From: a virus
Lineage: Duplodnaviria; Heunggongvirae; Uroviricota; Caudoviricetes
Length of the DNA: 18,298 nt
Reading direction: 5' to 3' (one strand)
Virus record (IMG/VR): IMGVR_UViG_2529292905_000017
Location: 1-18,298 of that record
Shown: one piece after another, positions 3,001 through 9,000 of the stretch
How positions within the stretch are numbered: the first letter of the stretch is position 1
Layout: each line of letters begins with the position of its first letter
Made by a program: the position numbers

Positions 3001-6000
3001 TGCTTTTTCCAGATTGGTGATATCCTGCTCCAGAGCGGACAGATTTTCAGCCTGCTTAGCCCTGGCTTCATTGGCCCATTTCAGATCCTGCGCTGCATTA
3101 ATTTTCTGGTGCATCCACTCATAAAGTTCATCATCGGTATAGTCTGGCGCGATGATGACGGGTTCTCGTTTCTGCATGTCGGCTCCTTGTGGTTAGCGTT
3201 GCCTGCTTTTAACCACGTCAGGCGAGGTGGTATCCTCTGAGGGGTCTGTTACTCGAGAGGAAATTGGTTATGAATACAATCAAGTTTTCTTGCCCAGAAT
3301 GTGGTGGCGAAGTCTTTGACACATCCTTTAAGCCGCAGGGCTCTGACAGTTTCGCGGGAGCCATCTGCAAAAATTGTGGTCACCTTGTAACTGAAGATGA
3401 GTCCTCGCAGTTCGATGACGAAATCGTTGACAATATCTTCGGTGCACTCACCAGAGACTTTCTGAAGTAAAGGCGCATACCGCTTAGTTACCGCTCTGAT
3501 AACTCTTACCTGTCCTGCAATGGCGCTGATGTCAATATAAAGCGCCATTGCTGCTTCTTTGCCGATCCCGGGATGCCTTCCATTCTGATGTTTGACTTCG
3601 CCCACTGAGAAACCCTCTGTTTCCCCTTAACGCCGGGGTAGCGGAACAAAAACCTGCTGCATAGTTATTAAAGTTGAACCCTGCCGTCATGTTCATACGC
3701 CTCGGGCTGGCTACTTAACCCCTGACCACTGCCGGGTAACTCGAAGTATTTCCCTGCGTTCTGTGGGGCGGGGTGGGTTGGTATTTTTAGTTTAATAAAC
3801 ATTAAACTTAAGTCAAGTAAAAACTAAACCGCGGGACATAACAAACACAACGCTTTTGATAAAGTCGTTGCGGTTGTTATGTTTCTATTGGTAGTGAAAG
3901 TTAGGGAAACTGGCGTCTTGCGTGGATCACGTTTACTACTTCAACGCTTGATGTTGTTACGCGGTATAGAATTATATAGTTAGGGTGGGCTACAATCTCA
4001 CGCAAGCCAGGTACTCTGTCGCTTGGTGGGTATAAATACGGATGTTCGGATAACGGCAGCACACAACCCCTTAATCGCTGCCATAAGCGTTCAGCCGCAT
4101 CTATGTCGAAACGAGCAATATAACTAGTTATATCATCTAGGTCGGTATCTGCGCTTTCAAGCCATAACACGGGTAACATTTTACTGCTTGCTCCGTTCCT
4201 TGCGCATCTTAGCAAAGCGTTCTGCCATTCTGCGCTCAACTTCGTCATGGGGAATTGCTGGGCGCGGATCTGCAAGGCTCGTTGCTACTTTCGCACGCAG
4301 CCATTCGTTGTAACTGTTTTCTTGTTCAATGGTTTCAAATTCAGAAACCATTGGTGAAAGGGCTCTATTCATGTTTCCTCCGGTTTTATAACTCAGGCGC
4401 GGCGGCATTTTTGCGCCGCAATCCATCTCGCTATGAGATCTTCCATTGATTCTTTTTTCTGCTTTAACTCGCTGATTATCTGGCGTTGCTCATCCTCAGG
4501 GAAGGCTGAAAAAATCTGCAATAATTCCAGTTGATTAGACGTTAACCCTGCATGTGGTGGAGAAACCCCCGGTTGTTCTGCGTATTCCGCATCCAGATAC
4601 CCTTCCGGCATCCCGTATGTTTGCTCTATTCTTCTGGCAGCCTTTTCTCCAAACGAGGCTCTCCCACTCATTAGTTGAGATAGGTAGCTCTTCTCTTTGG
4701 GTGGCAGAGTTTTATCTTTAAACCACTCCTTGAGACGTAAACGGCGAATTTCTTTTTTTGCATGTGGTAATTATCTTTAGTAATCACTAAACAAGCAAAT
4801 ACTTGACTTAATGGTTTATTAAACACTAAACTCGCAAAAAAACACTAAACCGAGGAAGGTATGACATTAAAAGAGTTTATTAAATCATTAAGGGTTGGTG
4901 ATGCTAAGAAATTCGCGGCCAGACTTGGTGTATCGCCATCTTACTTATCGCAAATGGCGTCTGGACGAACAGCTATATCTCCAACCCGCGCCCTTATGAT
5001 CGAATCTGCGACGGAAGGCCAAGTAAGTAGGGCGGAGCTACGACCCCATGATTGGGAGCTTATTTGGCCTGAGTATGCGAGCGGCATTCGTTTGGGGCAA
5101 ACACATGTAGTTCATGCTGAAGGTGATTGTAGTGCATGCTTATCTGATGGAGTTGATTCATGAAAATCAAGCATGAACACATCCGCATGGCGATGAATGT
5201 CTGGGCGCATCCGGACGGCGAAAAAGTACCGGCTGCGAAAATTACCAAAGCGTATTTCGAGCTGGGAATGACGTTCCCGGAACTGTATGACGACAGCCAT
5301 CCGGAAGCCCTGGCCCGTAATACCCAGAAAATTTTCCGTTGGCTGGATAAAGACACCCCTGATGCTGTTGAAAAAATGCAGGCTCTGTTACCGGCGATCG
5401 AAAAGGCGATGCCGCCTTTGCTGGTGGCCCGTATGCGCAGCCACAGTTCTGAATATTACCGTGAGATCGTCGAACGGAGGGATCGGCTGGTGAAGGATGT
5501 CGATGATTTTGTTGCGTCAGCGGTTGTTTTGTATGACCAGATGAATCGCGGCGGCCCGGCAGGGAATGCTGTGGTGATGCACTAAAAGCACGGTGTTCGG
5601 GGGTTTTATGAGCAGCAAGCTTCATGGTCTTGTCTGGGAAGGGTGCGCCTTCACCGGCATGATCTTATCCAGGGTGGCGGTTATGGCCCGTCTTGCAGAC
5701 TACAGCAATGACGAGGGCGTGTCATGGCCTGCCATTGAAACTATCCGGCGTCAGATCGGTGCAAGAAGTGAATCCACAGTGAAATCGGCTATTGCAGAAC
5801 TGGCGAAAGAGGGCTGGCTGACGAAGGAAGAGCGTAAGGTCGGTGGGCGTAATGTAAGCAATATCTATCGGCTTAATGTGGAAAAACTCGAAGCAGCTGC
5901 TGCGGCGGCGCGTGAGTCATATAAACCGAAAAGAAAAATTAGCCCGGCAAAAAATGACCCGTTAACAGTTGACCCGTCAAATATTGCCCCCTCAACGGTT

Positions 6001-9000
6001 GACCCGTCAAATTTTGATGGATCAACTGTTGATAACAAACTGCCGATTAGGGGGGCGATGATTGACCCCGATCCGTCAGTATTAAAACCTGATCCGTCAG
6101 ATAAAAGATCTTCTTGTCCGGACGCTTCGCAACCGGACCCGCAGACGGCTGAACAGAATTTTTTAACCCGACACCCTGACGCGGTTGTGTTCAGTGCGAA
6201 AAAACGCCAGTGGGGAAGTCAGGAAGATTTGGTGTGCGCACAGTGGATCTGGGGACGAATCGTGAGTCTTTACGAGCAGGCGGCCAGCGATGATGGCGAG
6301 ATCACGAGACCGAAAGAACCCAACTGGACTGCATGGGCCAATGACGTGCGGACAATGCGGATGCTGGATGGCAGAACTCACAGACAAATTTGTGAAATGT
6401 TTGGGCGTCTCCAGCGGGATTCGTTCTGGGTAAAAAACATCATGAGTCCGGCAAAACTCCGGGAAAAATGGGATGAACTGGTTATCCGCCTGGGGCGTTC
6501 GCCCGCGCAGCGTTGCGTGAATCACATTTCTGAACCGGACACTGAAATACCGCCGGGATTCAGGGGGTGACGTGTCATGAAAAACATTGCGGCAGTTGGG
6601 GTTCTTGAACGTATTCGCAGACTTGCACCACAGGGGGCGGTTCCACCGTACCGGACGGTGGAGGAGTGGCGGGAATGGCAACTTGCTGAAGGACGAAAAC
6701 GCAGCGAGGAGATTAACCGCCTGAATCATCAGGTGCGGGTTGAAAAAATCCTGAACCGTGCGGGCATCTAGCCGCTTCACAGGAAGTGCTCATTCGGGAA
6801 CTACCGGGTGCAGAACGACGGTCAGCGCCATGCTCTGAGCCAGGCGAAATCCATTGCCGATGAATTGATGACCGGATGTACAAACTTCGTGTTCAGCGGT
6901 AAACCTGGTACCGGTAAAAATCACCTGGCAGCAGCGATTGGCAATCGGCTGATGGCGAAGGGGAGAAGCGTGATTATCGTCACCGTGTCCGATGTCATGA
7001 GCGTGTTGCATGACGGCTACGACAACGGCCAGTCCGGGGAAAAATTTTTACAGGAGCTTTGTGGAGTTGACCTTCTGGTCCTTGATGAAATTGGCATGCA
7101 GCGGGATACGCGCAACGAGCAGGTCACGCTGAACCAGATAGTCGACCGCAGAACGGCTTCGATGCGTAGTGTCGGAATGCTGACGAACCTGAATCACGCA
7201 GCGATGAGCACACTCCTCGGAGATCGGGTGATGGACCGTATGACCATGAATGGTGGTCGTTGGGTGAATTTTAACTGGGAGAGCTGGCGGTCAAACGTTG
7301 GACGTCAGGGTATGTGAGAATTTTTGACGAGGTAAATTTTCGATGGAAACTGTATTGCATGCACTGAAAGCGATGGGAAAAGCCAATTCTGTTGAACTGG
7401 CGGCGCGGCTTGATATCAGCCGTGAAGAAGTTCTTAACGAACTGTGGGAACTCAAAAAAAATGGCGTTGTTGATAAAACGGGTCACACCTGGTTTCTGGC
7501 TGTCGAAGGTGAAGCCGGGGTAACCGAAGGGCAGGCACTACAACCTGAAGCGCCGGATGTGGTAACCGAAGAGGTCGCTCCAAAAGTTACCGCAGACATG
7601 ATGGTTGAGTTTATCGGTCAGGATGGTGCTAAAACGTGTGAGGAACTGGCGGGTAAGTTCGGCGTCAGTACTCGCAAGGTTGCTTCCACGCTGGCGGTGG
7701 TAACCGCAACGGGGCGGCTGGCACGCGTTAATCAGAACGGTAAATTTCGTTACTGCATGTCGGGGGGTAATTTACCAGCAGATCCGAAAGCCGCGCCGGT
7801 AACGAAAAATGATGGTAAGGCCTTTCCTCAGCCAGCAGGTGCTGCGTTACCAGTCCGGGAAGCCGCAACACAGGAAGAAATTAAAACAGAAACTGTGGCG
7901 GACATTGTGCAGCCGTTGCCATCGTTTACCGAAACGCAAGCAGATGAGCTGATTTTTCCGTCCCTGCGCAGGGCAAACCTGGCGCTGCGCAGGGCGAAAA
8001 GTGATGTTCAGAAGTGGGAGCGAGTCTGCGCCGCGCTGCGGGAGCTGAACAAGCACCGGGATATTGTTCGACAGATTACTGATTCTTCCCGCCGTGTTGT
8101 ATCGGAAAAGTGATAGCCGGAGGCGCTTATGGCGAAACCTTTTACACACGAACAGCGTGAAGAACTGAAGGCCCGAATTATCGGGCTGGTACGCAAAAAT
8201 GAACGCATGACGATATCACAACTGGAGAGAGCGACGGGAGCAGGCTGGCATTCAGTCAGACGTTGCCTTGTGGATGTACTGGCTTGTGGCGATTTATACA
8301 TGCCCGGTAAATACGGTGTTTTTACATCAGAACAGGTGTATCGCGTATGGCGTAAGGCTGCGGAGAAAGCAACCGACCAGACATTGATTCGAAAGTTACC
8401 AGACGGAGAAATACGCCGCTACGACAGACAACAGAACATAATCTGTGGCGAGTGCCGGAAGAGTGAAGTTATGCTGCGTGTACTGGCGTTCTATCAGGGC
8501 AATTTTCAGGAGGCGGTACGGGGGTGCGGACGATTTCTTGGACGGTTTATACGGACATCAATCCGACCGCATGACGATACTCGATGGGACTACGCCCGCC
8601 AAGCGACACTTTGATGCGGCGCTCGTTGTACCAGTGGATATAGGCATCGATTCGCGTCATGAGGTCTTTCAGCGTCACGTGCTGCCAATTCCTCGGGTAG
8701 ATTAGTTCGGTCTTCAATCGTCCGAAAAAGCCCTCGCATGCAGCATTGTCTGGCGAGCAGCCCTTTTTGGACATCGACCGCGTTAATTGGGCATTTTCAG
8801 TGCGGCGGATCCACGCAGGCCAGCGATAATGCGAGCCCCTGTCCGAATGGATAACCGGATGCTCACCGGGTCGCAGTGTCCGTACCGCGTGATCCAGCAT
8901 GGTATTGACCAGGTTCGCATCCGGGCTGGTGCCGATATTCCAGGCCACCACCAGCCCATCGAAGCAATCGACGATCGGCGAGACGTAGACCTTCCCTGCC

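Follow-up and report, generated by a model that had tools for sequence, protein, structure and literature searches.

The DNA analyzed here, referred to below as the window, is an 18,298-nucleotide stretch of a virus of the class Caudoviricetes (IMG/VR record IMGVR_UViG_2529292905_000017, positions 1 to 18,298). It contains a replication initiator gene resembling gene O of phage lambda (5608-6570, plus strand, 320 amino acids), the middle part of which encodes an interdomain linker and carries an array of short dyad-symmetric repeats followed by an AT-rich tract. On the basis of the sequence comparisons described below, the segment at about 5954-6115, within the linker-coding part of the gene, is probably the vegetative replication origin of a lambdoid prophage, and we hold this with good confidence.

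The initiator protein consists of an N-terminal winged-helix domain (residues 1-105, with a match to Pfam HTH_36 at residues 25-71), a disordered linker (residues 109-177, nucleotides 5932-6138), and a C-terminal domain resembling that of lambda O (residues ~180-300), and the entry PHROG 391, "replication initiation O-like", covers the whole protein (E 7e-115). In tblastn searches, residues ~153-300 were 34-38% identical to lambda O, 933W O and phi80 gp15 (E about 1e-18), with the C-terminal domain giving 34.5% identity to lambda O (E 5e-18), and a direct comparison of this domain with phi80 gp15 gave 36% identity (E 4e-26). The lambda and phi80 alignments stop short of the N-terminal domain of the initiator. 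The designation of the gene as O-like in the initial annotation is therefore borne out by the homology of its C-terminal domain to lambda O and phi80 gp15. An AlphaFold model made with 25 homologues had predicted local distance difference test (pLDDT) values of 75-91 in the domains and 32-44 in the linker (residues 109-177), and both the winged-helix domain (residues 1-105) and a helical C-terminal domain (residues ~201-299) were modelled with confidence. A Foldseek search returned dimeric winged-helix regulators of the MarR, PadR and ArsR types, all generic matches with weak E-values only, and a sequence search of solved structures with the initiator gave no informative relative. The linker coincides exactly with the repeat region, so the repeats occupy the least constrained part of the protein. 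The repeats at nucleotides 5954-6100 correspond to residues 116-165, in the linker that parts the winged helix-turn-helix from the O-like domain, and the repeat segment encodes NDPLT VDPSN IAPST VDPSN FDGST VDNKL ... DPDPSVLKPDPSD within the open reading frame 5608-6570.

The core of the array (5954-6040) is made up of six predicted 12-bp dyad sites at an exact 15-bp period, namely ATGACCCGTTAA (5954), TTGACCCGTCAA (5969), TTGCCCCCTCAA (5984), TTGACCCGTCAA again (5999), TTGATGGATCAA (6014), which is in the opposite orientation and contains GATC, and TTGATAACAAAC (6029), which has the left arm only. Three of these six phased dyads are perfect TTGA-N4-TCAA sequences. Two degenerate dyads, TTAGGGGGGCGA (6047) and TTGACCCCGATC (6062), occupy 6047-6073 and are 15 bp apart and 3 nt off the core register; they are homologous by position to TTAAGGGGTCAA and TTGACCCCGATC in the Edwardsiella locus L001, and may be binding sites as well. 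The left flank of the array is an A-rich stretch of low stability, CATATAAACCGAAAAGAAAAATTAGCCCGGCAAAAAA (5913-5953), which holds the least stable 30 nt of the gene, starting at 5913. Tandem Repeats Finder reported a period of 15/30 over 5943-6032 with a score of 94. The dyad TTGANNNNTCAA has three copies in the 18.3-kb window, all within 5969-6025, where 0.43 copies would be expected, and three copies were reached in none of 200 shuffles. The initial annotation had described a repeat cluster at 5952-6104, comprising two copies of the 15-mer GTTGACCCGTCAAAT (5968-5982 and 5998-6012), two of GATCCGTCAG (6070-6079 and 6091-6100), and four of TGACCC (5955, 5970, 6000 and 6063, which are four of the six copies in the window). 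All of these are present, but the element is wider, extending to about 5913-6121, and its true unit is the 12-bp dyad at a 15-bp period, not the 15-mer itself.

The conservation of the array was examined across more than 30 enterobacterial genera, from which 80 loci encoding homologous N-terminal domains were taken, and 76 complete genes, including that of the window, were analyzed. Every linker is composed of units of 5 amino acids (15 nt). In the linkers the sequence TGA-N4-TCA was counted 298 times (2.26 per 100 nt), against 22 times (0.038 per 100 nt) in the remainder of the genes, a linker density about 60 times that elsewhere in the gene, and successive matches are 15 nt apart in 145 of 222 cases. 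Serine codons in the linkers are TCA (54%) or TCT (31%) far more often than in the rest of the genes (16% and 13%). Among units of the form [D/E]-x-S (n = 354) the serine codon is TCA in 300, the aspartate codon is GAC in 236 and GAT in 54, and the codon preceding the unit ends in T in about 300 of the 354, being TCT for serine, TTT for phenylalanine, GTT for valine, ATT for isoleucine or CCT for proline; the base is kept while the amino acid varies (V/I/F/S, N/K/E). Synonymous sites at 44 conserved N-terminal-domain residues, which served as a control, are saturated, with a mean top-codon fraction of 0.53 (aspartate 0.54-0.55, proline 0.47). In genes of the same type as that of the window, TTGACCCCTCAA (Ile-Asp-Pro-Ser, IDPS) alternates with its reverse complement TTGAGGGGTCAA (Val-Glu-Gly-Ser, VEGS), and since the site occurs in both orientations, a single duplex site is written as two peptides. 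The family consensus is TTGA-SSSS-TCAA. The dyad arms are fixed and the four central bases vary, a pattern that fits recognition by a symmetric dimer and not recent transfer of a whole segment. Taken together, the codon, density, control, orientation, and arm and centre results show that the DNA sequence of the repeats, and not the peptide, is what is conserved. Absence of the repeats from orthologous initiator genes, which the initial annotation had named as evidence against an origin, was not observed, as they are present in all 76 genes and conserved at synonymous sites.

To the right of the core array is the motif GATCCGTCAGTA (6070-6081), which contains the Dam site GATC and is the most conserved DNA motif of the gene family. 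In the general form GATCC(G/A)T(C/T)A(G/T)T(A/T), of which GATCCGTCAGTA is the commonest version, it occurs in all 76 homologues. Its aspartate codon is GAT in 76 of 76, making the Dam site, whereas GAC is used for 236 of 290 aspartate codons in the upstream repeats, and its CCG, TCA and GTA codons are nearly fixed at synonymous sites. The AT-rich tract CAGTATTAAAACCTGATCCGTCAGATAAAAGATCTTCTTG (6076-6115, 65% AT) is a candidate unwinding element, of the kind that the initial annotation had proposed should be sought next to the repeats, and is kept across the family. A nearest-neighbour stability scan places the gene's least stable 40 nt here (z = +2.0 relative to the whole window). Within the tract is a dyad, CTGATCCGTCAG, at 6089-6100, and at its right edge the sequence AAAAGATCTTC agrees with the corresponding edge of the AT-rich tracts in phi80 and lambda. 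AT content across the family is 63-70% directly past the invariant motif and 34-37% directly ahead of it, and the segment 6066-6112 shows no variation among E. coli variants whose identity is otherwise 88-95%. Four GATC sites lie in 6020-6110, and at least two GATC sites are found within 75 nt in 68 of the 76 homologues; three have been ascribed to the 40 bp of the AT-rich tract region, of which those at 6091 and 6107 lie in 6076-6115. Equally dense GATC clusters occur elsewhere in the window, so density alone was rejected as a signal and it is the conservation of the sites that constitutes the evidence. The spacing of two of the GATC sites differs among relatives (18, 21 or 24 nt), which lends no support to strict helical phasing.

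Lambdoid origins contain iterons and an AT-rich tract in the middle of gene O, with four iterons in lambda and six in Shiga toxin (Stx) phages (PMC7466680). In the GenBank record of phi80, four gp15 binding sites are annotated in gene 15 at a place equivalent to that of the array in the window. Past the iterons of phi80 and lambda comes an AT-rich tract whose end is AAAAGATCTTCGTCC in phi80 and AAAAGATTATTCGTC in lambda, and then the O-like domain; the window has GTATTAAAACCTGATCCGTCAGATAAAAGATCTTCTTGTCCGG at this place, and in all three the tract ends AAAAGAT(C/T). Features in common with ori-lambda (four 19-bp iterons in gene O) and with the origins of 933W and P27 (six iterons) are the central location in the initiator gene, which separates the DNA-binding domain from the C-terminal domain, an array of four or more repeated dyad-symmetric sites, a promoter-distal AT-rich tract ending AAAAGAT, a number of iterons that differs among relatives and alters the length of the protein, and homologous C-terminal domains. 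Neither an N-terminal domain and iterons of the lambda O type nor a loader of the lambda P type is found in the window. Its N-terminal domain is of the HTH_36 type and unrelated in sequence to that of lambda O, its sites are 12-bp TTGA-N4-TCAA sequences with a G/C centre, set at a 15-bp period in both orientations, whereas those of lambda are ~19 bp with an A-rich centre and are more widely spaced, its array has embedded and conserved GATC sites, and the partner protein is an AAA+ loader of the DnaC/IstB type instead of lambda P. The origin of phi80 has the same position in the gene, a homologous C-terminal domain (36% identity), and a tract past the iterons, GTATTAAAAGATCTTCGTCCG, that resembles GTATTAAAAC...GATAAAAGATCTTCTTGTCCG of the window, but its iterons are of the CCCGAAAACGGGAA type with a spacing of about 21 bp, its N-terminal domain is unrelated to that of the window, and its partner, gp14, is lambda-P-like.

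Initiator-binding repeats beside an AT-rich tract, together with a winged-helix initiator, are also found in the iteron origins of theta-replicating plasmids (RepA, pi and TrfA types) and in P1 oriR. The repeats of theta plasmids are 17-22 bp direct repeats, usually helically phased, that lie outside the rep coding sequence and are accompanied by DnaA boxes, whereas the array of the window has a 15-bp period, uses both orientations, is inside a coding sequence and has no conserved DnaA box, so the combination of one-orientation repeats of 17-22 bp with conserved DnaA boxes is lacking. Functional GATC clusters are present in oriC and P1 oriR, and the window has, as would be looked for in a Dam- or SeqA-sensitive origin, a conserved GATC cluster at or near the unwinding region.

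The anatomy of the array, its positional homology to the lambda and phi80 origins, and the selection on the DNA of the repeats together support the assignment of this segment as an origin, and the proposal in the initial annotation of a candidate origin in a lambda-like place agrees with the position of the repeats between the DNA-binding and O-like domains and ahead of an AT-rich tract. From these observations we infer initiator binding, melting and loader recruitment, which may proceed in this way. The N-terminal winged-helix domain of the initiator itself would bind, as dimers, the 12-bp TTGA-N4-TCAA dyads at their 15-bp period and build a nucleoprotein complex like the O-some of lambda. 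This complex would stress the adjoining 40-bp AT-rich, GATC-bearing tract (6076-6115) until it opens, and the lambda-O-like C-terminal domain would bring host DnaB and the DnaC-type loader onto the open DNA, while transcription from an upstream pR-like promoter would pass through the site. In the copy of the prophage in the window, a loader supplied in trans would be needed. The arrangement is the known lambdoid one, and the type of site, in which 12-bp dyads of either orientation recur every 15 bp and are combined with an invariant GATC motif, appears to be undescribed. In the literature searched, which did not extend to the possibly relevant 2006 review of phage replication modules by Weigel and Seitz, no origin was described for this type of initiator.

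Several points weigh against this assignment. A 15-bp period places adjacent sites on nearly opposite faces of the helix, unlike the ~20-24 bp spacing of lambda. The AT-rich tract is only 65% AT, visibly weaker than that of lambda, and about 3% of the window is less stable. Because the loader gene of this copy is a pseudogene, the array could here be a relic, and no experimental report of binding or origin activity, nor any paper, was found for this initiator family. The array is moreover strongly self-complementary (z = -4.4 for a 181-nt RNA and -4.3 for a 96-nt DNA), as might be seen if nucleic-acid secondary structure had been selected, either in the mRNA, with effects on translation or stability, or as DNA hairpins or a cruciform. 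The linker arrays of the family show the same tendency, with mean z values of -5.3 and -4.7 compared with -1.1 and -0.5 for control coding sequence. However, self-complementarity is automatic when dyads are present in both orientations, each unit provides a stem of only 4-5 bp, no Rfam family matches in or near the repeat region, and the arms TGA/TCA are the same in all genera, although structure would be expected to permit free covariation. Because the arm sequence is invariant, recognition by a protein explains the data better than structure alone, for which we see little likelihood; hairpin or cruciform formation could be part of the function of the origin. It is even less probable, and strongly disfavoured by the comparison of homologues, that the array is merely a slippage-prone peptide linker of xDPSx units with no role as DNA, the identity of its codons reflecting recent duplication. 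Such an explanation would account for the predicted disorder of the linker, the change of copy number by whole units, and the conservation of D-P-S in the proteins. It does not account for motif positions that are synonymous and yet fixed over more than 30 genera while those in the flanking domain are saturated, for amino acids that vary (V/I/F/S, N/K/E) in such a way as to keep the bases, for a reverse-complement site that encodes a different peptide, or for a tripeptide, DPS, that uses GAC in the array and GAT in 76 of 76 downstream motifs, and recent transfer of a whole segment would not yield fixed arms around a free centre.

A third explanation accepts the dyads as real sites for the initiator or another protein but places the origin elsewhere and gives the sites a regulatory purpose, which could be autoregulation, copy control through handcuffing, or a roadblock to transcription. 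Conservation at the DNA level proves selection on the DNA and not what the selection is for, the iterons of plasmids serve both replication and regulation, and the AT-rich tract is modest. On the other side, the order of iterons, AT-rich tract and O-like domain matches that of two mapped lambdoid origins (PMC7466680), the dyad TTGANNNNTCAA occurs nowhere else in the window, the promoter region included, and an AT-rich tract directly after the invariant motif is kept across the family. A purely regulatory array is accordingly considered unlikely, though less so than either of the other two explanations, and an origin at about 5954-6115 remains the preferred interpretation.

The N-terminal domains form two groups, that of the window, with sites of the form T-TGA..TCA-A, and a second, with C-TGA..TCA-(A/G), which includes the Shigella phages SfII and SfIV, Klebsiella and many others. 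The array and the GATC/AT-rich tract remain with the N-terminal domain, and this unit is found joined to at least two unrelated C-terminal domains; lambda and phi80 have a C-terminal domain in common and differ in their N-terminal domains and iterons. DNA similarity of the window to the SfII/SfIV group (85.9-87.5%) and to Klebsiella phages (82.8%) begins exactly at 6070, at the invariant motif. The picture is the classical lambdoid one, with origin specificity travelling with the N-terminal half of the initiator. Homologous E. coli proteins of 320, 315, 310 and 305 amino acids were found, and one E. coli variant is without exactly one 15-nt unit. The same module is carried by isolated phages of the SfII/SfIV group. 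Shigella phage VIT_AJPSC, which is SfIV-like, has the same kind of initiator and dyad array at 1501-2442 of its locus (L083), and downstream of that initiator is a small unrelated open reading frame and no DnaC-like gene. Some members of the initiator family may use the host loader directly. More speculatively, the N-terminal winged helix-turn-helix, dyad array and GATC/AT-rich tract might form a portable cassette of initiator head plus origin, which would exchange, at a point just past the origin, one helicase-recruiting C-terminal domain for another. The dyads, packed densely every 15 bp and in both orientations, might together with the invariant Dam site point to a mode of origin opening or control unlike that of the lambda O-some, such as melting assisted by a cruciform or firing that depends on methylation or SeqA; we regard this proposal as tentative.

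Over 5500-6700 the window is 100% identical to a prophage of E. coli O157:H7, and by its sequence and gene content it appears to be a defective lambdoid prophage of that serotype. The gene order is lambdoid, with integrase and excisionase, exonuclease, DicF and a RelBE-like pair followed by a Cro/YdaS-like gene, then a CII-like/YdaT gene, the initiator and the DnaC/IstB-type loader, and further on RusA, the Q antiterminator and other late-region genes. The Cro/YdaS-like regulator gene (4861-5163, plus strand) and the CII-like/YdaT protein gene (5160-5585, plus strand) lie upstream of the initiator in the same rightward operon, and a promoter-like site (4803-4832) stands ahead of the former. 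By analogy with lambda pR, transcription from this promoter would run through the origin. No internal promoters or terminators were found within the array.

The helicase-loader gene (6577-7317, plus strand) matches the NCBIfam model PRK12377 and a DnaC model in both of its halves. It has an in-frame TAG at 6769-6771, at which a C to T change at 6769 converts Gln65 to a stop codon, and the loader allele of O157:H7 PV15-279 is intact and differs from that of the window at base 6769 only. From its sequence the loader gene of the window is thus a pseudogene, inactivated by a nonsense mutation. With this mutation and the IS3-family element described below, the prophage is defective; it cannot load the helicase by itself, and its origin would depend on a loader provided in trans, for example by a sibling prophage. 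The last 8 codons of the initiator gene (6546-6570) encode a tail, ...EIPPGFRG, that is widely kept among homologues of the initiator and is similar to the C-terminal end of DnaT, a primosomal protein of the host (NCBIfam NF002770, profile positions 159-179 of 179, E 0.004). In E. coli dnaT and dnaC are neighbours, which suggests that the tail might make contact with the loader or helicase.

The module is very common, with matches to this region of the window in about 2,260 of the 5,426 complete E. coli genomes, and it has relatives in Shigella, Klebsiella, Salmonella, Edwardsiella, Proteus, Providencia and other genera. The module is present in serotype-converting Shigella phages, and Stx phages have related replication genes. 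If the origin and its recognition sequence were known, it would be easier to foresee which prophages still replicate after induction, with consequences for toxin dose and gene transfer, and which of them have initiator specificity in common and may therefore cross-activate or interfere with one another. The array also illustrates cleanly how a cis-acting element in the DNA can dictate the sequence of a disordered linker in a protein, which annotators might otherwise take for a meaningless low-complexity repeat.

Other candidate elements around the array were considered and set aside. A perfect DnaA box, TTTTCCACA (5877-5885, minus strand), lies ~70 bp to the left of the array but is found at that place in only 1 of 76 homologues and was attributed to chance, and the consensus for integration host factor (IHF) gave one-mismatch matches only, at the expected frequency. 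The dyad TGACGTGTCA (6568-6577), which spans the stop codon of the initiator and the start codon of the loader, is not conserved in the 76 homologues. A possible natural mini-replicon, the circular 15,977-bp E. coli element pZ1322PEC0161-2 (NZ_CP148542.1), was not used as evidence, as the circle may be an assembly artefact. Its listed genes are a repressor, cro, an initiator with the array, a DnaC-like gene, Q and lysis genes only, with no other replicon, integrase or structural gene, a content reminiscent of lambda-dv. Two frameshifts that compensate each other flank the GATC motifs in its initiator gene and are probably long-read errors, possibly from basecalling at methylated sites.

Elsewhere in the window, an IS3-family element (8547-10090, minus strand) with two overlapping transposase open reading frames (9368-10090 and 8547-9401) interrupts the early-right region downstream of DUF1627/DUF977-like genes, and a related strain has insertion sequence elements at other positions of the same prophage. 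Rfam matches in the prophage are the antisense RNA DicF (2565-2616, minus strand), the small RNA STnc100 (14923-15112, plus strand), and two tRNA genes (13973-14045 and 14150-14223, both plus strand). The related strain carries dicB, ydfC, relBE and hokD, and these genes, together with DicF, STnc100 and the tRNAs, point to a Qin-like prophage.

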